Shown here piece by piece: positions 4,362 to 30,836 of a stretch of DNA of 64,000 nucleotides. Origin of the DNA: Eledone cirrhosa (taxonomy: Eukaryota); the NCBI GenBank assembly GCA_964016885.1, contig OZ024759.1, positions 26,970,001 through 27,034,000 of the forward strand. Reading direction: 5' to 3'. A model generated the notes under the pieces. It was not told the DNA's origin. It was given only the letters and a program-made list of their open reading frames with translations, and did no database searches. The position numbers and the translations under genes were made by a program. Positions within the stretch are counted from its first letter, which is position 1, and every line of letters starts with the position of its first letter.

Positions 4362-4458
<97 letters not shown>

Positions 4459-7158: not shown

Positions 7159-7260
7159 CCAAAGGCAGGCGAAAGGGGTGGACAAACGAGCTGCTACTAG
7201 ATCAAAAGATAACAGTATCGCGAGGAGCACTGGGAAACCTCTCTAATGATTTTTTAGGAA

Positions 7261-7458: not shown

Positions 7459-7485
7459 AACAGTGATAGATATTCTGTCTAAAGG

Positions 7486-7555
7486 AGGGGCGTACAACAG
7501 GCGGCCCGCGGGCCACAGTCGAGCCCACCTGACCAGTCAGAGTGGCCCGCAATGA
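7486..7555 (+). mobile_element. hAT-like 5' terminal fragment
   Basis: aggggcgtacaacaggcggcccgcgggccaca..gagccc..gtggcccgc resembles common hAT ends with subterminal GGCCCGC motifs. Confidence 0.55.
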
Positions 7556-7605
7556 CTCTTGTAGGCTTATTTAGAATTTTTTCCATACCCGTAATACTTC
7601 TGTTA

Positions 7606-8247
7606 GTTGACCTATACTAAAGGACTTCACTGATAGGGTTATATGTGTTATAATTTCCCAGTTGACCTATACTAAAGGACTTCACTGATAGGGTTATATG
7701 TGTTATAGTTTCCCAGTTGACCTATACTAAAGGACTTCACTGATAGGGTTATATGTGTTATAGTTTCCCAGTTGACCTATACTAAAGGACTTCACTGATA
7801 GGGTTATATGTGTTATAATTTCCCAGTTGACCTATACTAAAGGACTTCACTGATAGGGTTATATGTGTTATAGTTTCCCAGTTGACCTATACTAAAGGGC
7901 TTCACTGATAGAGTTATATGTGTTATAGTTTCCCAGAGGGCTTCACTGATAGGGTTATATGTGTTATAGTTTCCCAGTTGACCTATACTAAAGGACTTCA
8001 CTGATAGGGTTATATGTGTTATAGTTTCCCAGTTGACCTATACTAAAGGACTTCACTGATAGGGTTATATGTGTTATAGTTTCCCAGTTGACCTATACTA
8101 AAGGACTTCACTGATAGGGTTATATGTGTTATAGTTTCCCAGTTGACCTATACTAAAGGACTTCACTGATAGGGTTATATGTGTTATAGTTTCCCAGTTG
8201 ACCTATACTAAAGGGCTTCACTGATAGAGTTATATGTGTTATAGTTT
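7606..8247 (+). repeat. 55-bp minisatellite, ~12 units
   Basis: gttgacctatactaaaggacttcactgatagggttatatgtgttatagtttccca; one internally truncated unit near 7936. Confidence 0.96.
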
Positions 8248-8487
8248 GAAACAAACTACCCGCATCAGTTATTATACTTTTATAACACCGCTATATTACG
8301 TACATGAAAGAGGTAAATATTTATTTCTCTTGTCTTCTTAAATGTATAGAACATTTTTCTTATATATATTCTTAACATAGCTAGGACCGTTTATTATTTA
8401 CTAGTCTCTACTCCTAGGACTTTGCTGGTCTCATGTCCCCTCCATCAACACACACTCGGTAGAAAGCTGGTCGTCGGAGGTAAAGTG

Positions 8488-8625
8488 GCCCTGATTACAG
8501 GTCTAGTATTGAAGCCTTTCGGCTTGAGCCTTGCTGATGCCGACACAGTTCCTGTGGTAGTTTTGGTAGCACAGGTGACATTTTATTGTGTTTAGGTACC
8601 GGCTAGTGCGGACACAGAGAGCACA
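8488..8625 (-). pseudogene. Decayed PHD-finger coding relic (copies at 35722-35859 and 47771-47908)
   Basis: Reads CALCVRTSRYLNTIKCHLCYQNYHRNCVGISKAQAERLQY*TCNQG, which fits C4HC3 spacing. The expected Trp is TAG and the last Cys is GGC, each one base from TGG/TGC. Not in the ORF track. Confidence 0.72.
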
Positions 8626-8819
8626 ACCAGGTGGTGAGCTGGCAACGACCAAGTGTAGAGGGCCAGCTTTGAAATTCGAGCGACGGAGTGAACTAGTAAA
8701 AGAGGCAGGGTAAGCAGCATTGGTTCTAACGGTGGGACTAGAACGGAGGTTGGGTGGTGCTGGGGGTGGGCTAACAGCTAACAGTTGTAGGAGTGGTGGG
8801 GGTTTGCTAGGATTAATTT

Positions 8820-11272
8820 TTACATCTGTATGTGAACTCTTGAAAAAGCAACATACAATTGTCCAGGGTTAAATACTTGCTCAGGGAGGAACAGACCCAC
8901 TTTATCATGTATTTGACCATGGTTCTTGTTGATTGTCATGGCATATGACAGTCTTAATGGAAACTGGGGTCTTTCCAAAGTAAAAAGGATGTTGGCACCA
9001 CTGGGGGCTAACTTCAGTCTTGGGATCAAAACACACCTGCCCATCAAAGGACCATAGATATGAGAAGCTTTGATAAAATGTTTATGCAGTTCTACTACTT
9101 CTAATCTTGTGCCATTACATAATCTGTTCTGGATTGAAATATTCCATAGAAGCATTAGTATTGATCCTGCTTTTAATTGGAGTTTGTGAGGCGGCATCCC
9201 AGAAGGTGTAAGCAAGTTCATTTAGCTTGAACCAGGCAGCAAGGGTCCCTGCATTTCTACCACAACCTGAGCATTGCCTCTTTGAAAGTAAACTCTGTTT
9301 GTTCTCCAGGTGTGTGGCTAGGCTGTATAATGTATGTGATGTACCATGAAGCTTAAATTCGGAGAGACACGACACTGCTTCTGGCTGAGACACATACCTG
9401 CAACAAAGATAGGTTCTTATTTCATCATGGTTGTGTTGGTTCTGAGCCTCATTAGGTAATGCATTATTCGTTACTTCTATAGATGTACAATCATGCCCCA
9501 TGTAACATATTTAAAGAGGTACTTGACACTTTTTACAGAAGCGCAAACTTCAACATTAATATGTGCACAATATTTCTTAAGCAAAAAGGCATTAAATGGC
9601 ACAACATTCCTGTTATCTACTGAATGTCATCCAATTTACACTGCAGTTCCTGTCTTGCACCTCCTGTACTCCGGGTATCCATTTAGGTTCAATAATGTTT
9701 CCCTTCTGTAGGTTTTTGGATAGTTCTTTTGGAAAAATCCATTTTGTATAAATGGGGGAAAAGGGTTTCCAGAACCACATGGCCCGTGGATCATAAACTT
9801 TTAAACCTGCTCATATAGTACTTGATCATCTTCCAATGCAGGTATTTCTGCTGACACGATTCTGTCAATGTCTTCTCTGTTTCTTATCTTGTCTTCATTT
9901 CTTAAGGCTCAGTGTTATCATCTGTTTAGATAATTCATTAAACCATTATACTCATCCACTCACAATTGGGCTTGATTGTTCCTCAAATATTGAAGCCTGC
10001 ATCCCTCTACTTTCATATAGGCTTCCACTAAATACTGCTAAAATAATTTACCTGCCCTATATATCGCACTAAATCCTCCTCTATATGCTATACTGTATAT
10101 GTAATACTCCTGCATTGTCAGTCTATTGCAAACACAGGTCCTGCATTCCTCTCCATGTCACTATGCCACCAAAATTCACCATTATGGGTCGGTCATGAGG
10201 TCCAAGTGGCATGAATTATGTGATATTTTCTGAGGAGGATGGTCTTTAGGAAAGATGATAATATCTCTTTGTACAGGTGGTCTGCCCTCAATCCCCCACA
10301 AAACAACAGCTATCATTACTAGTTGGTAAATTATAGCAGCTCATATCTGATCCTCTTCTAAATCTTAATTCACAGTTCTGTACACGACAATGTTCTCTTC
10401 TTGCACTTTGCTGTTTGATGCCATGCATTGTATTGTACAATTCACATATGGATTACATTCATGCAACACCTCTCTTATCATAGCCATTTTTTGTGGTGAG
10501 CACTCATTATTTGTTGGTACTAGGGCGGTGGATTGGCAGTATCGGTAGAGCGTCAGACACCATGCTTTGCAGCATAGGGTTATGGCCCTTTACGTTCTGG
10601 GTTCAAATCCCTCCAAGGTTGACTTTGTTTTCATCCTTATGAGGTCGATAGAATAAAGTACCAGTAATTGCTGGCCTTGTGCCAGAAACAATTATTTGGT
10701 CGTACTTCCAATCTGTGCTACACACCTTCGTTCCCATCAATAATATATAACTGGCCATATTGTGGTGTATTTTCTGCAGGTTACAGAGGTGGGGGTGTAG
10801 TGATATGTTTGACCGTGAATATGAAAGCTATACGGGCCTCTGCCGGGTGGTAACACCAAATGAAGTGAAATAAATGTAGTTTTAATTGCAGACGTTTCTG
10901 TGAAATCAACTGCTTCCTGGCCTCTTTCAAAGAGATTTCTCAGTCTCTCGGGGTATATTTGCAATGGTGGCAACACAGCCTTTACTTTATTACAACAGTT
11001 ATTTTCATTTCTAAATTTCAAAGCTTCACAGTGATCACACGAAACATTCATATCACTAATATGAAATTCTTCTAGATTTCCATTAATATTAATTGTTGGC
11101 CAATTTCTCTTATGACGCTCATTATCCATTCTTCTCTGTCTGAATGTTTTCCATTCTAAGTCTATTTGCATGGAATAATTATATTCTGTTGTTTATTATG
11201 TAATTAAATAGCTCTGTACGATACATAGAGCATTCTTCTTTTCTTTACCTTTTCTATAGAAATACAAGAACA

Positions 11273-11319
<47 letters not shown>

Positions 11320-11360
11320 GTGTGTATATACATAAACAAGACTGTTATTACTCCAACCAG
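8820..11360 (-). mobile_element. Degenerate, internally deleted Helitron (RepHel pseudogene)
   Basis: Hand translation of the minus strand gives, in order: N-terminal Zn-finger CDHCEALKF..CC..LPPL; GRGPYSFHIHGQTYH; PPVQRDIIIFP; AGKLF*QYLVEAYMKVE; IVSAEIP..MIHGPCG; GYPEYRR; VDNRNVVPFN..HINVEVCASVKSVKYLFKYV (Rep motif 3 YxxKY, 9507-9521); DEIRTYL..RYVS.PEA; Pif1-type helicase C-terminus SGMPPHKL..LCNGTRL..QFPLRLSYAMTINK..GQLYVAFSRV. Many stops and frameshifts. Confidence 0.93.
10522..10690 (+). mobile_element. tRNA-derived SINE inserted antisense in the Helitron frame, with target-site duplication
   Basis: A-box-like tggcagtatcggtag, B-box ggttcaaatccc, core gactttgttttcatccttatgaggtcgatagaataaagtaccag. 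Imperfect 16-bp flanks attatttgttggtact / attatttggtcgtact. Same insertion at 1040-1208, ~27134-27302, ~40311-40479, ~49805-49973. Confidence 0.82.
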
Positions 11361-14300
11361 ATGAAACTCTGTCATGTAATGTTATCGACATATCTGCCCT
11401 TGGGGCTAATAATTGTCATGTAATGTTATGGACATCTCTGCCCCTGTGGCTAATAATTCTGTCATGTAATGTTATGGACATCTCTGCCCCTGTGGCTAAT
11501 AATTCTGTCATGTAATGTTATGGACATCTCTGCCCCTGTGGTTAATAATTCTGAGAGAGATAAAACAAGTGAGGGATTAGAGTGTTGAAACAAGAGAGAG
11601 AGAGGAAGAGAGAGAGAGAGCGAGATGAAATGAGACAGGGAGAGCGAGATGAAACGCGAGAGTGAGAGAAGCGATATGAAACGAGAGAGTGAGAGCGAGA
11701 TGAAACGAGAGAGAGAGAGAGCGAGATGAAACGAGACAGAGAGAGCGAGATGTAATGAGAGAGAGAGAGAGAGAGCGGGATGGAACGAGACAGAGAGGAA
11801 ACGAGAGAGAGAGGAAACGAGAGTAGAGAGCGAGATGAAACAGGAGAGAGAGAGCGAGATGAAACGAGAGGGAGAGAGAGATGAAACGAGGGAGATAGAG
11901 ATGAAACGAGAGAGAGGAAGAGAGAGATGGAACGAGAGAGAGGAAGACAGAGATGAAACGAGAGAGAGAGAGAGATGAAACGAGAGAGAGAGAGCGCGAG
12001 ATGAAACGAGAGAGAGAGAGCGCGAGATGAAACGACAGAGAGAGAGAGAGATGAAAGGAGGGAGATAGAGATGAAACGAGAGAGAGGAAGAGAGAGATGG
12101 AACGAGCGAGAGGAAGAGAGAGATGGAACGAGAGAGAGGAAGACAGAGATGAAACGAGAGAGAGCGAGATGAAACGAGAGAGAGAGAGAGCGAGATGAAA
12201 CGAGAGAGAGGAAGAGAGAGAGCGCCAGATGAAACTCTGTCATGTAATGTTATGGACATATCTGCCCTTGGGGCTAATAATTGTCATGTAATGTTATGGA
12301 CATCTCTGCCCCTGTGGCTAATAATTCTGTCATGTAATGTTATGGACATCTCGGCCCCTGTGGCTAATAATTCTGACATGTAATGTTATGGACATCTCTG
12401 CCCCTGTGGCTAATAATTCTGACATGTAATGTTATGGACATCTCTGCCCCTGTGGCTAATAATTCTGTCATGTAATGTTATGGACATCTCTGCCCCTGTG
12501 GCTAATAATTCTGCCATGTAATGTTATGGACATCTCTGCCCCTGTGGCTAATAATTCTGCCATGTAATGTTATGGACATCTCTGCCCCTGTGGCTAATAA
12601 TTCTGACATGTAATGTTATGGACATCTCTGCCCTGTGGCTAATAATTCTGACATGTAATGTTATGGACATCTCTGCCCCTGTGGCTAATAATTCTGAGAG
12701 AGATGAAACAAGTGAGGGATTAGAGAGAGATAAAACAAGTGAGGGATTAGAGTGTTGAAACAAGAGAGAGAGAGGAAGAGAGAGAGAGAGCGAGATGAAA
12801 TGAGACAGGGAGAGCGAGATGAAACACGAGAGTGAGAGAAGCGAGATGAAACGAGAGAGTGAGAGCGAGATGAAACGAGAGAGAGAGAGAGCGAGATGAA
12901 ACGAGACAGAGAGAGCGAGATGTAATGAGAGAGAGAGAGAGCGGGATGGAACGAGACAGAGAGGAAACGAGAGAGAGGAAACGAGAGTAGAGAGCGAGAT
13001 GAAACGAGAGGGAGAGAGAGATGAAACGAGAGAGAGCAAGAGAGAGATGGAACGAGAGAGAGGAAGACAGAGATGAAACGAGAGAGAGAGAGAGCGAGAT
13101 GAAACTCTGTCATGTAATGTTATGGACATATCTGCCCTTGGGGCTAATAATTGTCATGTAATGTTATGGACATCTCTGCCCCTGTGGCTAATAATTCTGT
13201 CATGTAATGTTATGGACATCTCTGCCCCTGTGGCTAATAATTTTGTCATGTAATGTTATGGACATCTCTGCCCCTGTGGCTAATAATTCTGACATGTAAT
13301 GTTATGGACATCTCTGCCCTGTGGCTAATAATTCTGACATGTAATGTTATGGACATCTCTGCCCCTGTGGCTAATAATTCTAAGAGAGATGAAACAAGTG
13401 AGGGATTAGAGAGAGATAAAAAAGTGAGGGATTAGAGTGTTGAAACAAGAGAGAGAGAGGAAGAGAGAGAGAGAGAGCGAGATGAAATGAGACAGGGAGA
13501 GCGAGATGAAACGAGACAGAGAGGAAACGAGAGAGAGGAGACGAGAGTAGAGAGCGAGATGAAACAGAAGAGAGAGAGCGAGATGAAACGAGAGGGAGAG
13601 AGAGATGAAACGAGTGAGCGAGAGAGAGATGAAACGAGAGAGATAGAGATGAAACGAGAGAGAGGAAGAGAGAGATGGAACGAGAGAGAGGAAGAGAGAG
13701 AGGAAGACAGAGATGAAACGAGAGAGAGAGCGAGATGAAATGAGAGAGAGAGAGCGCGAGATGAAACGAGAGAGAGAGAGAGCGCGAGATGAAACGACAG
13801 AGAGAGAGACAGATGAAAGGAGGGAGATAAAGATGAAACGAGAGAGAGGAAGAGAGAGATGGAACGAGAGAGAGGAAGAGAGAGAGGAAGACAGAGATGA
13901 AACGAGAGAGAGAGAGAGCGAGAGGAAACGAGAGAGAGAGAGCGCAAGATGAAACGAGAGAGAGAGAGCGCGAGATGAAACTCTGTCATGTAATGTTATT
14001 GACATATCTGCCTCTGTGGCTAATAATTGTCATGTAATGTTATGGTCATCTCTGCCCCTGTGGCTAATAATTCTGTCATGTAATGTTATGGACATCTCTG
14101 CCCCTGTGGTTAATAATTCTGACATGTAATGTTATGGTCATCTCTGCGCCTGTGGCTAATAATTCTGAGAGAGATGAAACAAGTGAGGGATTAGAGTGTT
14201 GAAACAAGAGAGAGAGAGCGAGATGAAATGAGAGAGTGTGAGCGAGATGAAACGAGACAGGGAGAGCGAGATGAAACGAGAGAGTGAGAGCGAGATGAAA

Positions 14301-17300
14301 CGAGAGAGTGAGAGCGAGATGAAACGAGAGAGAGAGAGCGAGATGAAATGAGAGAGAGAGAGCGAGATGAAATGAGAGAGAGAGAGCGAGATGAAACGAG
14401 ACAGAGAGAGAACGAGATGAAACGAGAGAGTGAGAGCGAGATGAAACGAGAGAGAGAGAGCGAGATGAAACGGGAGGGAGAGAGAGATGAAACGAGAGAG
14501 AGTGGAAACGAGAGTAGAGAGCGAGATGAAACAGGAGAGAGAGAGAGCGAGATGAAACAGGAGAGAGAGAGCGAGATGAAACGAGAGGGAGAGAGAGATG
14601 AAACGAGAGAGCGAGAGAGAGATGAAACGAGAGAGAGGAAGAGAGAGATGGAACGAGAGAGAGGAAGATAGAGATGGAACGAGAGAGAGGAAGACAGAGA
14701 TGAAACGAGAGAGAGAGAGAGCGAGATGAAACAGGAGAGAGAGAGCGAGATGAAACGAGAGGGAGAGAGAGATGAAACGAGAGAGCGAGAGAGAGATGAA
14801 ACAAGGGAGATAGAGATGAAACGAGAGAGAGGAAGAGAGAGATGGAACGAGAGAGAGGAAGAGAGAGATGGAACGAGAGAGAGGAAGACAGAGATGAAAC
14901 GAGAGAGCGAGATGAAACGAGAGAGAGAGAGAGCGAGAAGAAACGAGAGAGAGGAAGAGAGAGAGCGCCAGATGAAACTCTGTCATGTAATGTTATGGAC
15001 ATATCTGCCCTTGGGGCTAATAATTGTCATGTAATGTTATGGACATCTCTGCCCCTGTGGCTAATAATTCTGAGAGAGATGAAACAAGTGAGGGATTAGA
15101 GAGAGATAAAACAAGTGAGGGATTAGAGTGTTAAAACAAGAGAGAGAGAGAGCGAGATGAAACGCGATAGTGAGAGAAGCGAGATGAAACGAGAGAGTGA
15201 GAGCGAGATGAAACGAGAGAGAGAGAGAGCGAGATGAAACGAGACAGAGAGAGCGAGATGTAATGAGAGAGAGAGCGAGCGGGATGGAACGAGACAGAGA
15301 GGAAACGAGAGTAGAGAGCGAGATGAAACGAGAGGGAGAGAGAGATGAAACGAGAGAGCGAGAGAGAGATGAAACCAGGGAGATAGAGATGAAATGAGAG
15401 AGAGGAAGAGAGAGATGGAACGAGAGAGAGGAAGACAGAGATGAAACGAGAGAGAGAGAGAGCGAGATGAAACGAGACAGAGAGAGCGCGAGATGAAACG
15501 AGAGAGAGAGAGCACGAGATGAAACGACAGAGAGAGAGACAGATGAAAGGAGGGAGATAGAGATAAAACGAGAGAGAGGATGAGAGAGATGGAACGAGAG
15601 AGAGGAAGAGAGAGATGGAACGAGAGAGAGGAAGACAGAGATGAAACGAGAGAGAGAGAGAGCAAGATGAAACGAGAGAGAGAGAGCGCGAGATGAAACT
15701 CTATCATGTAATGTTATTGATATATCTGCCCCTGTGGCTAATAATTGTCATGTAATGTTATGGTCATCTCTGCCCCTGTGGCTAATAATTCTGTCATGTA
15801 ATGTTATGGACGTCTCCGCCCCTGTGGCTAATAACTCTGACATGTAATGTTATGGACATCTCTGCCCTGTGGCTAATAATTCTGACATGTAATGTTATGG
15901 ACATCTCTGCCCCTGTGGCTAATAATTCTGAGAGAGATGAAACAAGTGAGGGATTAGAGAGAGATAAAACAAGTGAGGGATTAGAGTGTTGAAACAGGAG
16001 AGAGAGAGCGAGATGAAACGCGATAGTGAGAGAGGCGAGATGAAACGAGAGAGTGAGAGCGAGATGAAACGGGACAGAGAGAGCGAGATGTAATGAGAGA
16101 GAGAGAGAGCGGGATGGAACGAGACAGAGAGGAAACGAGAGTAGAGAGCGAGATGAAACGAGAGGGAGAGAGAGATGAAACGAGAGAGCGAGAGAGAGAT
16201 GAAACGAGGGAGATAGAGATGAAACGAGAGAGAGGAAGAGAGAGATGGAACGAGAGAGAGGAAGACAGAGATGAAACGAGAGAGAGAGAGAGCGAGATGA
16301 AACGAGAGAGAGAGAGCGCAAGATGAAACGAGAGAGAGAGAGCGCGAGATGAAACGACAGAGAGAGAGACAGATGAAAGGAGGGAGATAGAGATGAAACG
16401 AGAGAGAGGAAGAGAGAGATGGAACGAGAGAGAGGAAGACAGAGATGAAACGAGAGAGAGAGCGAGATGAAACGAGAGAGAGGAAGAGAGAGAGCGCGAG
16501 ATGAAACTCTCTCATGTAATGTTATCGACATATCTGCCCTTGGGGCTAATAATTGTCATGTAATGTTATGGACATCTCTGCCCCTATGGCTAATAATTCT
16601 GTCATGTAATGTTATGGACATCTCTGCCCCTGTGGCTAATAATTCTGTCATGTAATGTTATGGACATCTCTGCCCCTGTGGCTAATAATTCTGACATGTA
16701 ATGTTATGGACATCTCTGCCCCTGTGGCTAATAATTCTGCCATGTAATGTTATGGACATCTCTGCCCTGTGGCTAATAATTCTGACATGTAATGTTATGG
16801 ACATCTCTGCCCCTGTGGCGAATAATTCTGAGAGAGATGAACCAAGTGAGGGATTAGAGAGAGATAAAACAAGTGAGGGATTAGAGTGTTGAAACAAGAG
16901 AGAGAGAGGAAGGGAGAGAGAGAGCGAGATGAAACAAGAGAGTGAGAGAAGCGAGATGAAACGAGAGAGTGAGAGCGAGATCAAACGAGAAAGAGAGACA
17001 GCGAGATGAAACGAGACAGAGAGGAAACGAGAGAGAGAGGAAATGAGAGAGAGGAAACGAGAGTAGAGAGCGAGATGAAACAGGAGAGAGAGAGCGAGAA
17101 GAAACGAGCGGGAGAGAGAGATGAAACGAGAGAGCGAGAGAGAGATGAAACGAGGGAGATAGAGATGAAACGAGAGAGAGGAAGAGAGAGATGGAACGAG
17201 AGAGAGGAAGACAGAGATGAAACGAGAGAGAGAGAGAGCGAGATAAAACGAGACAGAGAGAGCGCGAGATGAAACGAGAGAGAGAGAGCGCGAGATGAAA

Positions 17301-18880
17301 CGACAGAGAGAGAGACAGATGAAAGGAGGGAGATAGAGATGAAACGAGAGAGAGGATGAGAGAGATGGAACGAGAGAGAGGAAGAGAGAGATGGAACGAG
17401 AGAGAGGAAGACAGAGATGAAACGAGAGAGAGAGCAGGATGAAACGAGAGAGAGAGAGCGCAAGATGAAACGAGAGAGAGAGAGCGCGAGATGAAACTCT
17501 GTCATGTAATGTTATTGACATATCTGTCCCTGTGGCTAATAATTGTCATGTAATGTTATGGTCATCTCTGCCCCTGTGGCTAATAATTCTGTCATGTAAT
17601 GTTATGGACATCTCTGCCCTTGTGGCTAATAATTCTGAGATATATTAAACAAGTGAGGGATTAGAGTGTTGAAACAAGAGAGAGAGAGCGAGAAGAAATG
17701 AGAGAGTGAGAGCGGGATGAAATGAGAGAGAGAGAGCGAGATGAAACGGGAGGGAGAGAGAGATGAAAAGAGAGAGGAAACGAGAGTAGAGAGCGAGATG
17801 AAACAAGAGAGAGAGAGAGCGAGATGAAACAGGAGAGAGAGAGCGAGATGAAACGAGAGGGAGAGAGAGATGAAACGAGAGAGCGAGAGAGAGATGAAAC
17901 AAGGGAGATAGAGATGAAACGAGAGAGAGGAAGAGAGAGATGGAACGAGAGAGAGGAAGAGAGAGATGGCACGAGAGAGAGGAAGACAGAGATGAAACGA
18001 GAGAGAGAGAGCGAGATGAAACGAGAGAGAGAGAGCGCGACATGAAACGAGAGAGAGAGAGCGCTAGATGAAACGACAGAGAGCGAGACAGATGAAAGAA
18101 GGGAGATAGAGATGAAACGAGAGAGAGGAAGAGAGAGATGGAACGAGAGACAGGAAGACAGAGATGAAACGAGAGAGAGAGAGAGCAAGATGAAACGAGA
18201 GAGAGAGAGAGCGCAAGATGAAACGAGAGAGAGGAAGAGAGAGATGGAACGAGAGAGAGGAAGAGAGAGATGGCACGAGAGAGAGGAAGACAGAGATGAA
18301 ACGAGAGAGAGAGAGCGAGATGAAACGAGAGAGAGAGAGCGCAAGATGAAACGAGAGAGAGAGAGCGCGAGATGAAACGACAGAGAGAGAGACAGATGAA
18401 AGAACGGAGATAGAGATGAAACGAGAGAGAGGAAGAAAGAGATGGAACGAGAGAGAGGAAGAGAGAGATGGAACGAGAGAGAGGAAGACAGAGATGAAAC
18501 GAGAGAGAGAGAGAGCGAGATGAAACGAGAGAGAGGAAGACAGAGATGAATCGAGAGAGAGGGAGAGCGAGATGAAACGAGAGAGAGAGCGCGCAAGATG
18601 AAACTCTGTCATGTAATGTTATTGACATATCTGCCCCTGTGGCTAATAATTGTCATGTAATGTTATGGTCATCTCTGCCCCTGTGGCTAATAATTCTGTC
18701 ATGTAATGTTATGGACATCTCTGCCCCTGTGGCTAATAATTCTGACATGTAATGTTATGGACATCTCTGCCCTTGTGGCTAATAAATCTGACATGTAATG
18801 TTATGGAAATCTCTGCCCCTGTGGCTAATAATTCTGTCATGTAATGTTATGGAAATCTCTGCCCCTATGGCTAATAAATC
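11361..18880 (+). repeat. Composite satellite, left arm: 46-bp arrays alternating with 8 GA-rich blocks
   Basis: Unit tgtcatgtaatgttatggacatctctgcccctgtggctaataattc (46 bp, ~2-10 per array), then linker gatgaaacaagtgagggattagag, then 0.4-1 kb of gagatgaaac(ga)n variants. Confidence 0.96.
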
Positions 18881-18881
18881 A

Positions 18882-21800
18882 GAATTATTAGCCACAGGGG
18901 CAGAGATGTCCATAACATTACATGTCAGAATTATTAGCCACAGGGGCAGAGATGTCCATAACATTACATGACAGATTTATTAGCCACAGGGGCAGAGATG
19001 TCGATAACATTACATGTCAGATTTATTAGCCACAGGGGCAGAGATGTCCATAACATTACATGTCAAAATTATTAGCCACAGGGGCAGAGATGTCCATAAC
19101 ATTACATGACAGATTTATTAGCCACAGGGGCAGAGATGTCCATAACATTACATGACAGAATTATTAGCCACAGGGGCAGAGATGTCCATAACATTACATG
19201 ACAGAATTATTAGCCACAGGGGCAGAGATTTCCATAACATTACATGACAATTATTAGCCCCAAGGGCAGATATGTCCATAACATTACATGACAGACTTTC
19301 ATCTCGCGCTCTCTCTCTCTCGTTTCATCTCACGCTCTCTCTCTTCCTCTCTCTCGTTTCATCTCGCGTTCTCTCTCTTCCTCTCTCTCGTTTCATCTCG
19401 CTCTCTCTCTCGTTTCATCTCTGTCTTCCTCTCTCTCGTTCCATCTCTCTCTTCCTCTCTCTCGTTCCATCTCTCTCTTCCTCTCTCTCGTTTCATCTCT
19501 CTCTCTCTCGTGTCATCTCTATCTCCCTCGTTTCATCTGTCTCTCTCTCTGTCGTTTCATCTCCCTCTATCTCTCTCTCGCTCTCTCGTTTCATCTCTCT
19601 CTCCCTCTCGTTTCATCTCGCTCTCTCTCTCCTGTTTCATCTCGCTCTCTCTCTCCTGTTTCATCTCGCTCTCTACTCTCGTTTCCTCTCTCTCGTATCC
19701 TCTCTCTCGTTTCCTCTCTCTCTCGTTTCCTCTCTCTCTCGTTTCCTCTAGCTCTCACTCTCTCGTTTCATCTCGCTCTCTCTCTCTCATTTCATCTCGC
19801 TCTCTCTCTCTCGTTTCATCTCGCTCTAACCTGTCTCGTTTCATTTCGCTCTCTCTCTCTCTCGTTTCATTTCGCTCTCTCTGTCTCATTTCATCTCGCT
19901 CTCTCTCTCTCATTTCAACTCGCTCTCTCTCTCTCATTTCATCTCGCTCTCTCTCTCTCGTTTCATATCGCTCTCACTCTCTCATTTCATCTCGCTCTCT
20001 CTCTCTCGTTTGATCTCGCTCTCACTCTCTCTTCCTCTCTCTCTCTTGTTTCAACACTCTAATCCCTCACTTGTTTCATCTCTCTCTTATCCCTCACTTG
20101 TTTCATCTCTCTCAGAATTATTAGCCACAGGGGCAGAGATATCCATAACATTACATGTCAGAATTATTAGCCACAGGGGCAGAGATGTCCATAACATTAC
20201 ATGACAGATTTATTAGCCACAGGGGCGGAGATGTCCATAACATTACATGACGAATTTATTAGCCACAGGGGCAGAGATCTCCATAACATTACATGACAGA
20301 ATTATTAGCCACAGGGGCAGAGATGTCCATAACATTACATGACAGAATTATTTGCCACAGGGGCAGAGATGTACATAACATTACATGACAATTATTAGCC
20401 CCAAGGGCAGATATGTCCATAACATTACATGACAATTATTAGCCCCAAGGGCAGATATGTCCATAACATTACATGACAGACTTTCATCTCGCGCTCTCTC
20501 TCTTCCTCTCTCTCGTTTCATCTCGCTCTCTCTCTCTCGTTTCATCTCGCTCTCTCTCTCTCTCGTTTCATCTCGCGCTCTCTCTCTTCCTCTCTCTCGT
20601 TTCATCTCGCTCTCTCTCTCGTTTCATATCTGTCTTCCTCTCTCTCGTTCCATCTCTCTATTCCTCTCTCTCTCGTTTCATCTAGCTATCACTCTCCCGT
20701 TTCATCTCCCTCTATCTCTCTCTCGCTCTCTCGTTTCATCTCTCCCTCCCTCTCATTTCATCTCGCTCTCTCTCTCCGGTTTCATCTCGCTCTCTCTCTC
20801 TCCTGTTTCATCTTGCTCTCTACTCTCGTTTCCTCTCTCTCGTTTCCTCTCTCTCGTTTCCTCTATCTCTCGTTTCCTCTCTCTCTCGTTTCATCTAGCT
20901 CTCACTCTCTCGTTTCATCTCGCTCTCTCTGACTCGTTCCATCTCGCTCTCACTCTCTCGTTTCATCTCGCTCTCTCTCTCTCATTTCATCTCGCTCTCT
21001 CTCTCTCATTTCATCTCGATCTCTCTGTCTCGTTTCATCCCGCTCTCTCTGTCTCGTTTCATCTCGCTCTCTCTCTCTCATTTCATCTCGCTCTCTCTCT
21101 CTCATTTCATCTCGCTCTCTCTCTCTCTCTCGTTTCATCTCACTCTCAATCTCTCATTTCATCTCGCTCTCTCTCTCTCATTTCATCTCGCGCTCTCTCT
21201 CTTCCTCTCTCTCGTTTCATCTCGCGCTCTCTCTCTTCCTCTCTCTCGTTTCATCTCGCTCTCTCTCTCTCGTTTCATCTTGCGCTCTCTCTCTTCCTCT
21301 CTCTCGTTTCATCTCGCGCTCTCTCTCTTCCTCTCTCTCGTTTCATCTTGCTCTCTCCCTCTCTCTTTTCATCTCGCGTTCTCTCTCTTCCTCTCTCTCG
21401 TTTCATCTCTGTCTTCCTCTCTCTCGTTCCATCTCTCTCTTCCTCTCTCTCGTTCCATCTCTCTCTTCCTCTCTCTCGTTTCATCTCTCTCTCTCGTTTC
21501 ATCTCTATCTCCCTCGTTTCATCTGTCTCTCTCTCTGTCGTTTCATCTCCCTCTATCTCTCTCTCGCTCTCTCGTTTCATCTCTCTCTCCCTCTTGTTTC
21601 ATCTCGCTCTCTCTCTCCTGTTTCATCTCGCTCTCTCTCTCCTGTTTCATCTCGCTCTCTACTCTCGTTTCCTCTCTCTCGTATCCTCTCTCTCGTTTCC
21701 TCTCTCTCTCGTTTCCTCTCTCTCTCGTTTCCTCTAGCTCTCACTCTCTCGTTTCATCTCGCTCTCTCTCTCTCATTTCATCTCGCTCTCTCTCTCTCGT

Positions 21801-24800
21801 TTCATCTCGCTCTAATCTGTCTCGTTTCATTTCGCTCTCTCTCTCTCTCGTTTCATTTCGCTCTCTCTGTCTCGTTTCATCTCGCTCTCTCTCTCTCATT
21901 TCAACTCGCTCTCACTCTCTCATTTCATCTCGCTCTCTCTCTCTCGTTTGATCTCGCTCTCACTCTCTCTTCCTCTCTCTCTCTTGTTTCAACACTCTAA
22001 TCCCTCACTTGTTTCATCTCTCTCTTATCCCTCACTTGTTTCATCTCTCTCAGAATTATTAGCCACAGGGGCAGAGATATCCATAACATTACATGTCAGA
22101 ATTATTAGCCACAGGGGCACAGATGTCCATAACATTACATGACAGATTTATTAGCCACAGGGGCGGAGATGTCCATAACATTACATGACGAATTTATTAG
22201 CCACAGGGGCAGAGATGTCCATAACATTACATGACAGAATTATTAGCCACAGGGGCAGAGATGTCCATAACATTACATGACAGAATTATTTGCCACAGGG
22301 GCAGAGATGTACATAACATTACATGACAATTATTAGCCCCAAGGGCAGATATGTCCATAACATTACATGACAATTATTAGCCCCAAGGGCAGATATGTCC
22401 ATAACATTACATGACAGACTTTCATCTCGCGCTCTCTCTCTTCCTCTCTCTCGTTTCATCTCGCTCTCTCTCTCTCGTTTCATCTCGCTCTCTCTCTCTC
22501 TCGTTTCATCTCGCGCTCTCTCTCTTCCTCTCTCTCGTTTCATCTCGCTCTCTCTCTCTCTCGTTTCATATCTCTCTTCCTCTCTCTCGTTCCATCTCTC
22601 TATTCCTCTCTCTCTCGTTTCATCTAGCTATCACTCTCTCGTTTCATCTCCCTCTATCTCTCTCTCGCTCTCACGTTTCATCTCTCCCTCCCTCTCATTT
22701 CATCTCGCTCTCTCTCTCCGGTTTCATCTCGCTCTCTCTCTCTCCTGTTTCATCTTGCTCTCTACTCTCGTTTCCTCTCTCTCGTTTCCTCTCTCTCGTT
22801 TCCTCTCTCTCTCATTTCCTCTCTCTCTCGTTTCATCTAGCTCTCACTCTCTCGTTTCATCTCGCTCTCTCTGACTCGTTCCATCTCGCTCTCACTCTCT
22901 CGTTTCATCTCGCTCTCTCTCTCTCTCATTTCATCTCGCTCTCTCTCTCTCATTTCATCTCGATCTCTCTGTCTCGTTTCATCCCGCTCTCTCTGTCTCG
23001 TTTCATCTCGCTCTCTCTCTCTCATTTCATCTCGCTCTCTCTCTCTCATTTCATCTCGCTCTCTCTCTCTCTCTCGTTTCATCTCACTCTCAATCTCTCA
23101 TTTCATCTCGCTCTCTCTCTCTCATTTCATCTCGCGCTCTCTCTCTTCCTCTCTCTCGTTTCATCTCGCGCTCTCTCTCTTCCTCTCTCTCGTTTCATCT
23201 CGCTCTCTCTCTCTCGTTTCATCTTGCGCTCTCTCTCTTCCTCTCTCTCGTTTCATCTCGCTCTCTCTCTCTCATTTCATCTCGATCTCTCTGTCTCGTT
23301 TCATCCCGCTCTCTCTGTCTCGTTTCATCTCGCTCTCTCTCTCTCATTTCATCTCGCTCTCTCTCTCTCATTTCATCTCGCGCTCTCTCTCTTCCTCTCT
23401 CTCGTTTCATCTCGCGCTCTCTCTCTTCCTCTCTCTCGTTTCATCTCGCTCTCTCTCTCTCTCTCGTTTCATCTTGCGCTCTCTCTCTTCCTCTCTCTCG
23501 TTTCATCTCGATCTCTCTCTGTCTCGTTTCATCTCTGTCTTCCTCTCGCTCGTTCCATCTCTCTCTTCCTCTCTCTCGTTCCATCTCTCTCTTCCTCTCT
23601 CTCGTTTCATCTCTCTCTCTCGTTTCATCTCTGGCTTCCTCTCTCTCGTTCCATCTCCCTCTTCCTCTCTCTCGTTCCATCTCTCTCTTCCTCTCTCTCG
23701 TTTCATCTCTCTCTCTCGTTTCATCTCTATCTCCCGCGTTTCATCTGTCTCTCTCTCTGTCGTTTCATCTCCCTCTATCTCTCTCTCGCTCTCTCGTTTC
23801 ATCTCTCTCTCCCTCTCGTTTCATCTCGCTCTCTCTCTCCTGTTTCATCTCGCTCTCTCTCTCCTGTTTCATCTCGCTCTCTACTCTCGTTTCCTCTCTC
23901 TCGTTTCGTCTCTCTCGTTTCCTCTCTCTCTCGTTTCATCTAGCTCTCCCACTCTCGTTTCATCTCGCTCTCTCTGTCTCGTTCCATCTCGCTCTCACTC
24001 TCTCGTTTCATCTCGCTCTCTCTCTCTCATTTCATCTCGCTCTCTCTCTCTCATTTCATCTCGCTCTCTCTCTCTCGTTTCATCTCGCTCTCTCTGTCTC
24101 GTTTCATCTCGCTCTCGCTCTCTCTGTCTCGTTTCATCCCGCTCTCTCTCTCTCATTTCATCTCGCTCTCTCTCTCTCATTTCATCTCGCTCTCTCTCTC
24201 TCTCTCGTTTCATCTCGCTCTCACTCTCTCATTTCATCTCGCTCTCTCTCGTTTGATTTCGCTCTCACTCTCTCTTCCTCTCTCTCTCTTGTTTCAACAC
24301 TCTAATCCCTCACTTGTTTCATCTCTCTCAGAATTATTAGCCACAGGGGCAGAGATGTCCATAACATTACATGTCAGAATTATTAGCCACAGGGGCAGAG
24401 ATGTCCATAACATTACATGACAGATTTATTAGCCACAGGGGCAGAGATGTCCATAACATTACATGACGAATTTATTAGCCACAGGGTCAGAGATGTCCAT
24501 AACATTACATGTCAGAATTATTAGCTACAGGGGCAGAGATGTCCATAACATTACATGTCAGAATTATTAGCCACAGGGGCAGAGATGTCCATAACATTAC
24601 ATGACAGATTTATTAGCCACAGGGGCAGAGATGTCCGTAACATTAAATGACAGATTTATTAGCCACAGGGGCAGAGATTCCATAACATTACATGTCAGAA
24701 TTATTAGCCACAGGGGCAGAGATTTCCATAACATTACATGACAGAATTATTAGCCACAGGGGCAGAGATGTCCATAACATTACATGACAGAATTATTAGC

Positions 24801-26100
24801 CACAGGGGCAGAGATGTCCATAACATTACATGACAATTATTAGCCCCAGGGGCAGATATGTCCATGACAGAGTTTCATCTCTCGCTCTCTCTCTTCCTCT
24901 CTCTCGTTTCATCTCGCTCTCTCTCTCGTTTCATCTCGCTCTCTCTCTCTCTCGTTTCACCTCTGTCTTCTTCTCTCTCGTTTCATCTCTCTCTTCCTCT
25001 CTCTCGTTCTATCTCTCTCTTCCTCTCTCTCGTTTCATCTCTCTCTCTCGTTTCATCTCTATATCCCTCGTTTCATCTGTCTCTCTCTCTGTCGTTTCAT
25101 TTCCCTCTATCTCTCTCTCGCTCTCTCGTTTCATCTCTCTCTCCCTCTCGTTTCATCTCGCTCTCTCTCTCCTGTTTCATCTCGCTCTCTCTCTCCTGTT
25201 TCATCTCGCTCTCTACTCACGTTTCCTCTCTCTCGTTTCCTCTCTTTCTCGTTTCATCTCTCTCTCGTTTCATCTCTCTATGTCTCATTTCATCTCGCTC
25301 TCTCTCTCTCTCATTTCATCTCGTTCTCTCTCTCTCTCATTTCATCTCGCTCTCACTCTCTCGTTTCATCTCGCTCTCTCACTCTCGTTTCATCTCGCAC
25401 TCTCTCTCTCGTTTCATCTCTCTCTCTCTCTCTCTCTCATTTCATCTCGCTCTCTGTCTCGTGTCATCTCGCTCTCTCTGTCTCTCGTTTCATCTCGCTC
25501 TCACTCTCTCGTTTCATCTCACTCTAACTCTCTCATTTCATCTCGCTCTCCCTGTCTCGTTTCATCTCGCTCCCACTCTCTCATTTCATCTCACTCTCTT
25601 TCTCTCATTTCATCTCGCTCTCTCGCTCTTGTTTCAACACTCTAATCCCTCACTTGTTTCATCTCTCTCTAATCCCTCACTTGTTTCATCTCTCTCTTGT
25701 TTCAATTCTTTCTCTCTCTCTCTCTCACTCTCTCTCTCTCTCTCTCTCTCTTTCTATCCCCTCTCTCTTTCTCTCCCCTCTCTCTGTTGTTTCATCCCTC
25801 ACCCTCTTGTTTCATCCCCTTCTCTCCCTCTCTCTCTCTTCCCCTCTATCTCTATTCCTCTCTCTCATCCCCTCTCTCTCTCTTCCTCTCTCTCTCTTCC
25901 TGTCTCCCCTCACCCTCTTGTTTCAACTCTCTCCTCGTTTCAACTCTCTCCTCGTTTCAACTCTCTCCTCGTTTCAACTCTCTCCTCGTTTCAACTCTCT
26001 CTCTCTCCTCTCGTTTCAACTCTCTCTCTCTCCTCGTGTTTCAACCATCTCCTCTCTTGTTTCAACTCTCTCACCTCTCGTTTCAACTCTCTCTCTCTGT
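18882..26100 (-). repeat. Composite satellite, right (inverted) arm with 4 CT-rich blocks
   Basis: Reverse complement of the same 46-mer, linker and (ct)n gtttcatctc blocks; orientation flips at 18881. Confidence 0.96.
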
Positions 26101-27025
26101 GTCTCCAATGTGTATACCGATATATATACCGAAGAATGTACATAAACACACATGCATACACGCATGTGTATATATATATACATACATGTGTCTCTCTCTC
26201 TCCCTATATATATGTACATATGTGTAAATATGTACATACATATTAGTGTATATATATTGCTATCTATATGCATATTTGTATTAATTATACTGTATGGTGA
26301 ATTGGCAGTATCGGTAGAGGGTCTGACGCCATGCTTTCCAGCATAGTTACGTCCCTTTACGATCCGAGGTCAACTTTGCCTTTCATCCTTACGGGGTCGA
26401 TAAAATAAAGTACCAGTAATGTACTGGTTAATTACTGACCTTGTGCCTAAAATAGAAACAATTATTAGTTCAAAGAGAAACCACCATCATAGAGAAACCA
26501 CCGTCCTACCTGAAATATTATGTTATCATATTAAATATTTCTTATACTGTCATGTTTTTTCTTTAAAACGATTGCATTTCAATAAAGTGAAGAAAACTAT
26601 TATATACTGTTGTTATATCATTATACTTTAGTTTTAACTTATTATTTCTATGTGTATAAATATAATGTATGTAAGTGTGTTTGAAAATATATAATAATAA
26701 TATGCATGTTTGAAGCAGGGTTCAACTGAAATATCTACACCGGTAACTTAATTAGTGTTACACCTTAGGCATAAACTATTTGGCATTCTTTGAAGGAGGT
26801 ACTAGGTTTTTCACTGTCTTAAATGGAGTATACACGCGCACACAATGCATATATATAAATTGTTTTTCTCTGTACAAAGAGATTGACATCATTTCTTAAA
26901 TCATTATTTAGGGTTTTACAACAAAACATATTGTATGTGTAATTATACAAATTGAATTTAAGTATTTATTTTAAAATTTTACATACACTTTAGTAGTATA
27001 TATATATATATATATATATTCATTT

Positions 27026-27917
27026 GTGATGCCATGCATTGTATTGTACACTTCGACATATGAATTACGTTCATGCAACACTTCTCTTATCATAGGCATT
27101 TTTTGTGGTGAGCAGTCATTATTTGTTGGTACTAGGGCAGTGGATTGGCAGTATCGGTAGAGCGCCAGACACCATGCTTTACAGCATAGGGTTATGGCCA
27201 TTTACGTTCTGGGTTCAAATCCCTCCAAGGTTGACTTGGTTTTCATCCTTATGAGGTCGATAGAATAAAGTACCAGTAATTGCTGGCCTTGTGCCAGAAA
27301 CAATTATTTGGTTGTACTTCCAATCTGTGCTACACACCTTCGTTCCCATCAATAATATATAACTGGCCATATTGTGGTGTATTTTCTGCAGGTTACAGAG
27401 ATGGGGGTGTAGTGATATGTTTGACCCTGAATATGAAAGCTATACGGGCCTCTGCCGGGTGGTAACACCAAATGAAGTGAAATAAATGTAGTTTTAATTG
27501 CAGATGTTTCTGTGAAATCAACTGCTTCCTGGCCTCTTTCAAAGAGATTTCTCAGTCTCTCAGGGTATATTTGCAATGGTGGCAACACAACCTTTCCTTT
27601 ATTACAACAGTTACAATTTTCATTTCTAAATTTCAAAGCTCCACAGTGATCACACGAAACATTCATATCACTAATATGAAATTCTTCTACATTTCCATTA
27701 ATATTAATTGTTGGCCAATTTCTCTTACAACGCTCATTATCCATTCTTCTCTGTCTGAATGTTTTCCATTCTGTTGTTTATTATGTAATTAAATAGCTCT
27801 GTACAATACATAGAGCATTCTTCTTTTCTTTACCTTTTCTATGGAAATACAAGAACAAACATGTAAATATATATATATATGTATATACATAAACAAGACT
27901 GTTATTGCTCCAACCAG
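27026..27917 (-). mobile_element. Helitron N-terminal fragment (U2)
   Basis: ORF remnant 27349-27744 with the same motifs as 1255-1692. Confidence 0.88.
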
Positions 27918-29360
27918 TCTATTTACCTTTGATAACTATCCTAAATATAAATACACCTATACCATACATACATATATCATATATGTTTTTGATGCCGTGG
28001 TATAGCAGAGATAAGCAAGAAGAGAAAAGAAAATGAAAAGGAGAAAAAAAAAAGAAGTAAGAAGTCGGGGGAGGGACAGACACTTCACCCCAGTCTAAGT
28101 GGTCCCTCAGCCGCAACCTGTGGAAGAAACTTAAAAGCGTTACCTCGGAGCAAGGCCAGAGACACCTGCTACAATAGTCGCCCCTCCTCATGAGGCTCCT
28201 GTCATCTTTCCTCCCGACTTTATGGAGGAAATCAGCAGTACAGGGACCAAGTATGGCAGAGGTCTCAATGGAGTGGAAGAGGTGAGTCAGGCCTTGGTAC
28301 TATCTTACTATCCTCTGCATTGCGGGGTGTGGAGCCTAGGTTTGTGGCTGTAGCTATATTTGAACTTTTATATGAAATTTCAGTTTTATATTTTTCACAT
28401 CATAAAACTTAATCTTAGTCTTTTGCAGCTCATCTTGTTTCATCTCGCAGCACACGATTTGGGAACCACTGCTCTAGAGATAGAAAAAGTATATTTTATG
28501 CAGGGCTTCCCTGAGACATAAAAACTATTTCAAGAGATCGACATGGGTAGAAAGGTTGAGAAATGCTGCACAATGTTCTTTGGTTTTTGTTCACCTTTAA
28601 ATAATCATGTATAAAATATCGGGTGTGCAAGATTTCATGAAAAGGTATAACATTTTTTATGCTGGTCTTGCAGGGACTAGCTCCAATTGAGAGTTGTACC
28701 AATTCCCACTAAACTCGAAACTCCTGGACAATATATACATATCTTTATAAGTTCCTGTGTATTGTGTCGCTGTATAATGAAACATAAATATATACCATGC
28801 ATGTCAGTCAGATTTGAACTCACTATATTTGGCGTTTTATAGACATAATTTGTTTGTTAAAAGAATTGATTAAATAATAACTAAATAAAATTAATTCTAC
28901 AATCCTGGATAGGGAATGAACTTATAACTTCATAATAGAAGCCATCTATTCGAGCAGTATTGCCATCTAAGCCACCAGGTTACTTACAGAACTTCATTCA
29001 AATATAAAATATAAAATATATGCCAGACATAGTGAGTTCGAATCTGACTGATTAGTTGGTCATTGTCCCAGCCAACAGTTTAAATCGCCAACCAGTAGGT
29101 GACATCGACTAGGTTGGGAAAACTTGGTTAAGTAGCTCCAGTTATTGCTACGTTAGACATATTCAAGACTTATCGACACCGAATGGAAGAAAGGTAAAGT
29201 TGAACTCAGAGTAAAGAACAGGAAAAATACTGCAAAGAATTCTATCTGATGTTCTAACAATTCTACCAAATTACCTTATGTATATATATTTATATCTAGA
29301 GATAAGAAGAAAACTGAAAGAAAGAAAAGAAAAAAAATGAGACCTTATATGTAACCCATG

Positions 29361-30424
29361 TTACAACTCAATATATATATATTTGGGTTGTAACATATTC
29401 CCGCCGGTGAAATAAAAATTTTAATAGAAAAACGGCGGGAATATATGTTACAACCCAATCTATATATATTTGAGTTGTAACATATATTCCCGCCGTTGAA
29501 ATAAAAATTTTAATAGAAAAACGGCGGGAATATATGTTACAATCCAATCTAGATATATTTGGGTTGTAACATATATTCCCGCCGTTGAAATAAAAATTTT
29601 AATAGAAAACCGGCGGGAATATATGTTACAACCCAATCTATATATATTTGGGATGTAACATATATTCCCGCCGTTGAAATAAAAATTTTAATAGAAAAAC
29701 GGCGGGAATATATGTTGCAACCCAATCTACATATATTTGGGTTGTAACATATATTCCCGCCGTTGAAATAAAAATTTTAATAGAAATACGGCGGGAATAT
29801 ATGTTACAACCCAATCTATATATGTTTGGGTTGTAACATATATTCCCGCCGTTTTTCTATTAAAATTTTTATTTCAACGGCGGAAATATATGTTACAACC
29901 CAAATATATGTAGATTGGGTTGCAACATATATTCCCGCCGTTTTTCTATTAAAATTTTTATTTCAACGGCGGGAATATATGTTACAATCCAAATATATAT
30001 AGATTGGGTTGTAACATATATTCCCGCCGTTTTTCTATTAAAATTTTTATTTCAACGGCGGGAATATATGTTGCAACCCAAATATTTATAGATAGGGTTG
30101 TAACATATATTCCCGCCGTTTTTCTATTAAAATTTTTATTTCGACGGCGGGAATATGTTACAACCCAAATATATATAGATTGGGTTGTAACATATATTCC
30201 CGCCGTTTTTCTATTAAAATTTTTATTTCAACGGCGGGAATATATGTTACAACTCAAATATATATAGATTGGGTTGTAACATATATTCCCGCCGTTTTTC
30301 TATTAAAATATTTATTTCAACGGCGGGAATATATGTTACAACCCAAAAATATGTAGATTGGGTTGTAACATATATTCTCGCCGTTTTTCTATTAAAATTT
30401 TTATTTCACCGGCGGGAATATATA
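29361..30424. repeat. 89-bp hairpin-unit tandem array with internal orientation switch
   Basis: Unit = 28-bp stem ttgggttgtaacatatattcccgccgtt + 22-nt loop + reverse-complement stem + 11-nt spacer. Five loops forward, then seven reversed; switch at ~29825-29850. Confidence 0.95.

Positions 30425-30797: not shown

Positions 30798-30836
<39 letters not shown>

Follow-up and report, generated by a model that had tools for sequence, protein, structure and literature searches.

A modular satellite switches strand within a tandemly repeated 39-kb mosaic of transposon remnants in Eledone cirrhosa

In the 64,000-nucleotide stretch of Eledone cirrhosa DNA analysed here (the window), a modular satellite flips strand at position 18881 inside a 39-kb unit made up of remnants of transposons; the inverted block probably goes back to one old replication template switch. 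The site is a strand flip of this satellite, neither a 14.7-kb palindrome nor a foldback transposon, and most likely represents a passive scar left by rearrangement, without a function of its own.

Each satellite module consists of an array of 46-mers and a GA-rich block. The left arm (11361..18880, plus strand) comprises nine arrays with 47 monomers (anchors 11373-18838) and eight GA-rich blocks of 412-970 bp, and the right arm (18882..26098, minus strand) contains four arrays with 36 monomers (anchors 18924-24832) and three GA blocks of 819-1,912 bp. The arms meet at the strand-switch centre TC-A-GA (18879..18883), which has a 2-bp perfect core and a 1-nt spacer. One monomer family lies on either side of this point joint in opposite orientation, and GC skew and AT skew both reverse sign at 18881. 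A 1.2-kb degenerate head is present in the right arm; the left arm has no head and begins mid-module, and its last monomers bear variants typical of right-arm arrays. The window holds 166 monomers, in arrays on both strands. A second flipped copy (50648..63308) has its centre at 58142 and three right-arm arrays, not four. The original prediction had described plus-strand modules that continue as reverse-complement modules past 18881, an inversion of purine/pyrimidine skew at the centre, arms of unequal module number and length, and a recurrence of the same centre at 58142. All of this holds. A sigma-70 scan, with one match per 46-mer monomer, was discarded as irrelevant because the genome is that of an animal; reading frames in the GA blocks were dismissed as low-complexity by-products.

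The claim of a 14.7-kb spacer-less palindrome fails on arm-to-arm comparison. The sole in-register inverted stem (18651..19111) measures 230 bp per side, with 12 mismatches and a longest perfect run of 40 bp. Counted from 18881, the first mismatch falls at offset 3, 14 mismatches occur in 232 positions, and no perfect stem of at least 12 bp was found at this centre. Mirror-register identity over successive 100-bp steps is 94/100, 95/100, 50/100 and 16/100 with no later recovery, register being lost after about 230 bp. Global alignment of the left with the right arm gives 73% matches, 563 mismatches and 280 gap blocks, against only 14 mismatches and 4 gap blocks between the two left-arm copies compared directly, and exact inverted matches from arm to arm reach at most 124 bp, versus 1,232 bp for exact matches between the direct left-arm copies. 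To judge from these alignments, the arms are old and evolved separately. They have a family in common, but neither module order nor private words: 291 of 598 recurring left-arm 20-mers are missing from the right modules, as are 406 of 713 in the reverse direction (20-mer containment between arms 0.30-0.50). Near-identical mirror arms and a perfect centre, the marks of a true palindrome, are both lacking at 18881. The 1-nt spacer is weak evidence and does not prove a fold-back, as it would arise in about 10% of cases by chance; when 46-mer phases were simulated, tail-to-tail joins had a spacer of 0-1 in 206 of 2,116 pairs (9.7%). A multi-kb cruciform finds no support, the in-register stem being only about 230 bp long and mismatched from offset 3. 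The arms pair strongly out of register (-315 kcal/mol for 691 nt, computed as single-stranded DNA), and inverted matches of at least 85% and at least 200 bp cover 40% of the left arm, the longest spanning 1,012 bp. Long imperfect dsRNA from the arms is structurally possible, with transcription hypothetical. Skew flips within satellites can mimic giant palindromes without being such, which calls for caution.

Both ends of the inverted block are microhomology joints rather than transposon ends. At the left end, the 4-bp microhomology CCAG (11357..11360, plus strand) joins flank DNA, the same as at 1862-1865, to a module start, and direct flank copies bracket the block (933-1865 equals 10416-11360 at 95%). 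The arrangement resembles DUP-TRP/INV-DUP or ODIRA products, with an inverted segment between direct repeats and microhomologies of 4 bp and 2-3 bp at the joints. Across both arms, the ends of the flipped satellite are one microhomology junction and one ordinary satellite head; compared inward, these outer ends are identical at 15 of 60 positions. The longest word common to both flanks has 6 nt, and a flank word of at least 7 bp on both sides is absent. This 6-mer was ruled out as a target duplication, because the implied empty site was not found and each flank recurs elsewhere in the window beside a different partner. A 15-bp match of the GA-block motif to a transposon end at 2271-2285, which we take to be hAT-like, was rejected as a link since it is not significant (E = 0.16).

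The flip is embedded in a higher-order tandem unit (1..39268, plus strand) that repeats from 39269 and forms a mosaic of satellite and transposon in sub-units of about 13 kb. In non-satellite DNA the two 39,268-bp copies differ by 0.0-0.09% substitutions. The flipped-satellite copies at 18881 and 58142 have the same flanks in the 64-kb window, and their centres have 13 of 14 stem mismatches in common. Because both sit in the 39,268-bp direct duplication, 58142 is not independent and represents the same event as 18881. In its basic form the sub-unit comprises a dead Helitron interrupted by an insert that carries the satellite in minus-strand orientation; one sub-unit has an extra 7.5-kb plus-strand satellite block. 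All flanks are direct, and only the left arm is inverted with respect to the basic unit. A second, unrelated strand-switched satellite (29358..30480) consists of 89-bp double-hairpin units, five forward and seven reverse, and terminates in a perfect 26-bp stem with a 9-nt loop at a direct-duplication joint. The units' own hairpins confound a mirror-centre scan of this array, and orientation was therefore read from the loop motifs. The 39-kb unit also holds a 592-bp inverted duplication.

The satellite-bearing insert (37653..40203, minus strand; 2,551 bp) contains eight monomers, a GA head and an AT-rich part, is flanked by a 3-bp direct repeat and interrupts the Helitron RepHel frame between residues 340 and 341 of P0001. 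Minus-strand Helitron remnants lie downstream of it at 36060..37650 (P0001 residues 341 onward) and upstream at 40196..40933 (residues 148-340), and the upstream type also occurs at 925-1662 and 27019-27756. The empty site of the insert is found at 10416-10418, inside an unsplit dead RepHel remnant (8826..11156, minus strand; residues 141-867 and 1367-1498). The N-terminal Helitron piece was positioned by tblastn with P0001; a homologue search at near lengths gave no match for it, and Helitron termini were not located on inspection by eye. With tandem repeats inside a Helitron, the layout resembles that of a Helitron-borne, HINE-like satellite.

Sequencing reads bear on the junction itself. 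The comparison covers runs X1, X4, X5 and X12, with X6 and X7-X10 (shares below 0.2) left out, and the 46-mer satellite is present in all four, as befits a repeated genomic family rather than an accident of one locus. X12, with 1,088 satellite reads, consists of raw RAD reads from another sample of the same species label, for which the enzyme was deduced; 464 of its molecules terminate at an AATT site. Twelve of the 1,088 reads lie on the left half, end at the AATT immediately to the right of the centre and carry 93 loose letters. They fit a 57-nt AATT-to-AATT fragment crossing the centre (18830..18886, plus strand), and 57 nt plus 93 loose letters make up the 150-nt read length. This fit, deduced from summary tables, reaches no further than 6 nt beyond the centre, including the 4 nt of the cut site. 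Two centre-type alleles are retained in 13 of 51 and 12 of 49 left-half X12 reads, and an in-silico digest of one unit predicts one junction fragment in 65 (1.5%), versus 1.1% seen. From the X12 read fit, the junction looks native. Eleven X12 'opposite strand' joints (18880 to 18924 or 18927) were rejected as ordinary tandem continuations split across the reference halves. From X1, X4 and X5, 110, 11 and 11 contigs were placed; of their pieces 24 were listed and 128 were not, and none of the 24 spans the centre. Depth in X1 apparently drops to zero at about 18877-18878, though other rare monomer variants occur in that run; its summed contig depth of about 2.9e5 is not a copy number. In X4, a run of another organism label, the 46-mer is likewise found next to its 27-mer/GA neighbour. 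The exact 26-nt monomer pattern gave no match in metagenome contigs, and a sequencing-run search for the satellite returned no RNA run among the matches listed.

In the proposed origin, a nascent strand would have departed from the flank, primed synthesis within a satellite module on the opposite strand and copied that module backwards. The switch back may have used the self-complementary motif TC-N-GA, which lies where a 46-mer array ends, beside a tract of 87% purine with the potential to stall forks. Slippage and unequal exchange could afterwards have altered each arm separately, the loss of mirror register would have removed most of the instability, and the three-sub-unit block may recently have been duplicated as the 39-kb unit. 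PMC10766186 describes segments that are inverted between direct repeats and joined by microhomology, and palindromes that eroded later. Human HSat3B5 and beta-satellite arrays contain more than 200 strand switches (10.1101/2021.07.12.452052), and satellite strand switches have been interpreted as by-products of array expansion (10.64898/2026.07.22.740206). The pathway itself is not readable, because the arms are too diverged and because end joining or re-insertion of a satellite piece leaves the same two joints; nor can a template be named, since the left arm is no recognisable copy of the right arm.

Such a re-insertion, in which an excised satellite piece (e.g. a circle or break fragment) was put back in reverse by microhomology-mediated end joining without any template switch, is unlikely. 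It would suit the mere 2-4 bp of homology at both joints, and the left arm's lack of special likeness to the adjoining right modules (0.30-0.50) would be expected of a piece from another array. However, the block lies between direct flank copies, and elsewhere in the unit there is another flipped array and, at a different duplication joint, a perfect fold-back, so copying fits better than cut and paste. The right-arm-type variants in the last left-arm monomers also speak against a foreign piece. An assembly artefact, be it a chimeric fold-back read at the centre or two haplotypes placed in tandem as the 39-kb duplication, is very improbable. The original prediction had already doubted a simple fold-back read, and rightly so, because the arms carry fixed differences: such a read would give identical arms, whereas 14 of 232 positions differ here, 13 of them in both copies, and the 12 fitting reads stem from an independent library. 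The lack of a centre-crossing piece among the listed X1, X4 and X5 contigs would agree with an artefact, and a divergence of 0.0-0.09% is possible for alleles too, yet the centre does not hinge on the 39-kb duplication, which is itself putative.

A decayed foldback-type DNA transposon, with long terminal inverted repeats made of satellite, is hardly credible, even though each arm consists of modular tandem repeats and the two are inverted relative to each other, the flanks share a 6-mer and the GA motif matches the presumed hAT-like end over 15 bp. The original prediction of a foldback-like element does not stand, because the outer ends do not form inverted repeats; a target duplication of 8-10 bp is missing, as is the empty site that such an insertion would imply, the flanks have other partners elsewhere, and the left arm starts mid-module. 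In Tetris-type elements, by comparison, the TIRs comprise flanking, outer and inner domains, and the duplications measure 8-10 bp (PMC4079207). There is also only a very slim chance that the flip was kept for a function, be it to supply long dsRNA to editing or small-RNA silencing, or to form structures as an element of heterochromatin or the centromere. Junction reads amount to about 1% of X12 monomer reads, close to the share expected from one per unit, so units with a centre may constitute the family's main form. The occurrence in X4, the strong out-of-register pairing and the putative dsRNA and hyper-editing in which octopus is reportedly rich (PMC5625713) would be in line with a function. 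Yet the arms drifted apart instead of staying alike, the junction frequency is explicable by passenger amplification, and the unit has no annotated gene or RNA family: Rfam at the gathering threshold gave no match over 1-39300, ARAGORN found no gene in the unit, and a Pfam scan of 6 of the 64 listed ORFs returned a Pif1 2B match and a sub-threshold PHD match. Improbable, too, is the wider picture of an undescribed octopod macrosatellite with nearly spacer-less switches built into the 39-kb unit, which would be the dominant form of a cross-species family, grow in a fold-back-prone manner (rolling-hairpin or Helitron-driven) and yield kb-long dsRNA feeding the very high A-to-I editing or the small-RNA silencing in these animals.

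Read as the scar of a template switch, the locus offers a clear, well-dated case of strand-switch persistence, in which arms lose register, the centre collects mismatches and the joint is amplified as a passenger. It also describes, for the first time, a modular satellite family of cephalopod type, and would gain greater weight only if the unit turned out to form an array of several megabases with a role in the chromosome, or to be a source of edited dsRNA.

Among known systems, foldback transposons (Tetris, PMC4079207; FB and Galileo as cited there) likewise have long inverted arms with internal tandem repeats, but conserved inverted termini, an 8-10-bp target duplication, a middle domain and dispersed insertions in the window are all missing here. 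DUP-TRP/INV-DUP and ODIRA structures (PMC10766186; PMC11293582) share the inverted segment between direct repeats, the two microhomology joints and the eroded palindromic centre; the present arms, however, are too diverged to show an exact triplication, and the spacer is 1 nt, whereas ODIRA joints in yeast are described with 40-80 nt. Mollusc Helitrons also harbour tandem repeats (PMC10048060), whereas the present satellite came in secondarily, as an insert flanked by a 3-bp direct repeat, and breaks a dead RepHel frame. Helitron ends were not located, so rolling-circle amplification would be hypothetical. The large tandem unit of remnants resembles composite satellites that consist of transposon pieces, as mentioned in 10.1101/2021.07.12.452052. 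The strand switches of human HSat3B5 (chr9) and beta satellite are alike in having one family on both sides, a point flip and related non-mirror arms (10.1101/2021.07.12.452052; 10.64898/2026.07.22.740206), but differ from the two-part module of 46-mer array and GA block, the kb-sized arrays and the location of the switch within a 39-kb unit seen here. The modular satellite family looks undescribed; its kind, the satellite strand switch, is known and common in satellite DNA.

Tandem-repeat searches, composition analysis, self-BLAST, and scripts were applied to the window, and the sequence was read over 1-41500 and 56500-64000. The left arm of the satellite (11361-18880) consists of nine plus-strand arrays of a 46-bp monomer (4, 10, 6, 4, 2, 5, 7, 3, and 6 monomers) with eight GA-rich blocks between them. 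To the right of 18881, four minus-strand arrays (9, 8, 8, and 11 monomers) follow, and the GC skew turns from +0.42 to -0.52. The same centre recurs at 58142. The satellite is real, and the original observation is borne out in part. The right arm (18882-26098) terminates in a degenerate head, which also terminates a lone array at 37670-39268.

The original prediction of a 14.7-kb palindrome fails because the mirror register is lost early. Counted from the centre, identity is 94/100 and 95/100 over the first 200 bp, 50/100 and 16/100 over the next, and at background beyond. In an end-to-end alignment of the two arms, 5,522 positions match (73% of the length) and 563 do not, with 280 gap blocks, compared with 7,452 matches, 14 mismatches, and 4 gap blocks for the left arm and its direct copy. 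Inverted matches of at least 85% and at least 200 bp cover 40% of the left arm. A giant cruciform is equally unsupported, given this loss of register and 14 stem mismatches within the first 232 positions, the earliest already at offset 3. In the predicted single-strand fold of 18605-19295 the arrays pair one monomer out of register, with a large loop between them, and the sole perfect stem of at least 12 bp with a loop of at most 10 nt outside microsatellites lies at 30420-30480, not at the centre. Every tail-to-tail join of the 46-bp monomer is quasi-palindromic, and 206 of 2,116 simulated phase pairs of such joins have a spacer of 0-1 nt; the spacer-less joint, singled out earlier, is therefore only mildly unusual.

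Both copies of the centre share 13 of the 14 stem mismatches, so that a simple fold-back read artefact is unlikely, as had been proposed. Part of 9000-12700 occurs in ten of the fourteen public sequencing runs listed, with at least half of the words in three. Four runs, three with contigs (X1, X4, X5) and one of RAD reads from another sample and study (X12), were aligned to 18835-18927. The monomer was found in all four, including X4, which carries a different organism label and in which a loose end shows the same 27-mer/GA neighbour. Among the 1,088 aligned X12 reads, the AATT site at 18883 is where 464 molecules end, and the library was therefore probably prepared with an enzyme that cuts at AATT. 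In the centre-type monomer the usual AATT is absent; a fragment crossing the centre would consequently extend from 18830 to 18886 (57 nt). Twelve X12 reads lie on the left half, stop at 18886, and continue with a median of 93 loose letters that are mutually unlike (agreement 0.43); 57 and 93 add up to the 150-nt read length of this run. Centre-type letters are kept at 18854 and 18867 in 13/51 and 12/49 left-half reads. When one unit is digested in silico, one centre fragment per 65 aligned is expected (1.5%), and the observed share is 12/1,088 (1.1%) among the loose-end groups listed, beyond which nine further groups exist. Judged from summary tables, these twelve reads appear to fit the junction, reaching only 6 nt beyond the centre. 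Against a native junction, no piece spanning the centre was among the 24 listed from X1, X4, and X5 (128 further pieces exist), and in X1 the depth seems to fall to zero at about 18877-18878 although other rare variants are present; contigs can show presence, not absence.

A foldback-like element had also been suggested. Tetris elements are described as having a middle domain between terminal inverted repeats of three parts each, and target duplications of 8-10 bp (PMC4079207). In contrast, the outer ends of the flipped satellite agree at only 15/60 positions, the longest word common to both flanks is 6 nt, the window holds no empty site of the kind a target duplication implies, and each flank is found elsewhere in the window beside another partner. 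The foldback reading was rejected on these grounds. The left arm starts mid-module, at a 4-bp microhomology common to flank DNA (1862-1865 and three further copies) and two module starts (12225 and 14968). It is the only inverted block, set between direct copies of flank DNA (933-1865 and 10416-11360, 95%).

The inverted block has one 4-bp and one 2-3-bp joint, and a tract of 87% purine lies beside the centre. Such tracts may stall replication forks. Two template switches in replication or repair most likely created the block, the second at a self-complementary motif at an array end next to this tract. Later slippage would have brought the arms out of register; of the recurring 20-mers, 291/598 and 406/713 are private to one arm. 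The block would then have been copied as part of the 39-kb unit. Alternatively, a satellite piece may have been re-inserted by end joining. Palindromic joints of inverted copy-number variants are reported to be eroded by later rearrangement (PMC10766186). Most likely, the flipped satellite is the scar of an old inversion of satellite DNA within a composite macrosatellite.

Of the 39,268-bp unit, 1-22034 recurs at 39269-61262 (97.5% identity with gaps), and copy 2 lacks one right-arm module. Non-satellite DNA differs at 0/855, 2/2,119, and 2/2,201 aligned bases (0.0-0.09%), yet a whole 1.9-kb module is different. Two readings fit these differences: a very recent duplication in which the satellite turns over fast, or a pair of haplotypes placed in tandem. 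The unit is itself composed of older sub-units, which diverge from one another by 1.2-3.0%. An interspersed repeat, short and present at 214, 1053, and 10535, presumably resembles octopus SINEs.

The unit has further scars of the same type as the 18881 joint. An unrelated satellite of 89-bp units with two hairpins each (29358-30421) runs five units forward and then seven in reverse, about 1 kb being self-inverted at 93-95%, at the point where the two copies of a direct duplication (27534-29360/30444-32305) meet. At its end, a perfect 26-bp inverted repeat with a 9-nt loop (30420-30480) arose by fold-back copying of flanking DNA, with a short, naturally occurring inverted repeat as the priming site (compare 1440-1475). 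A 592-bp inverted duplication (3735-4326 and 4874-5458, 91.5%) surrounds AT/AC microsatellites; it and a shorter self-inverted stretch at 5928-6309 are missing from the sub-unit at 31-35 kb. The unit also contains 40-bp repeats (6968-7169) and a 55-bp tandem array of 9-12 copies (7605-8247, 35004-35481, 46888-47530), preceded by what we take to be a hAT-like end near 7484.

Every sub-unit carries Helitron RepHel remnants, with a Pif1 2B domain at 8820-9221 (PF21530, E 4.4e-13). This piece is 77% identical to the full-length protein P0001, which can be placed in order along the minus strand; the best named match is from Octopus bimaculoides (65%), and by this match and the SINE-like repeat the host is probably an octopod. 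About 500 residues (P0001 867 to 1367) are missing from all three copies (break at about 9217-9221), and the Helitron was therefore dead before the sub-units were amplified. Directly after the helicase piece, an open frame with a PHD-finger-like end (8503-8868, minus strand; E 1.6e-4) falls under the Pfam cut-off. The frame at 11156-8826 is continuous across P0001 residues 303-512, and that at 40933-36060 is interrupted between residues 340 and 341 by an insert of 2,551 bp (37653-40203). The insert has a direct repeat of 3 bp, and its empty sites are at 10416-10418 and 49699-49701. No terminal inverted repeats were seen in this insert; its first 17 bases include a GA-block motif in opposite orientation to the remainder. 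The insert carries the satellite, whose usual orientation is therefore the minus strand, within the dead Helitron.

No description of the 46-bp family was found among the octopus and cephalopod satellite papers listed or by sequence motif. For O. vulgaris, 80 satellite families making up 3.12% of the genome are reported as counts (PMC13282606), and the 46-bp family may already be in an existing repeat library. High hyper-editing and putative dsRNA reported in octopus (PMC5625713) make any transcription of the flipped satellite of interest. Strand switches in satellites are a common, known phenomenon: more than 200 are reported in human HSat3B5 and beta satellite (10.1101/2021.07.12.452052), and such switches are described as randomly scattered and proportional to array length (10.64898/2026.07.22.740206). 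The flipped satellite resembles these human satellites in its strand switches and, with tandem repeats inside a Helitron, also the mollusc Helitrons reported to contain them (PMC10048060).
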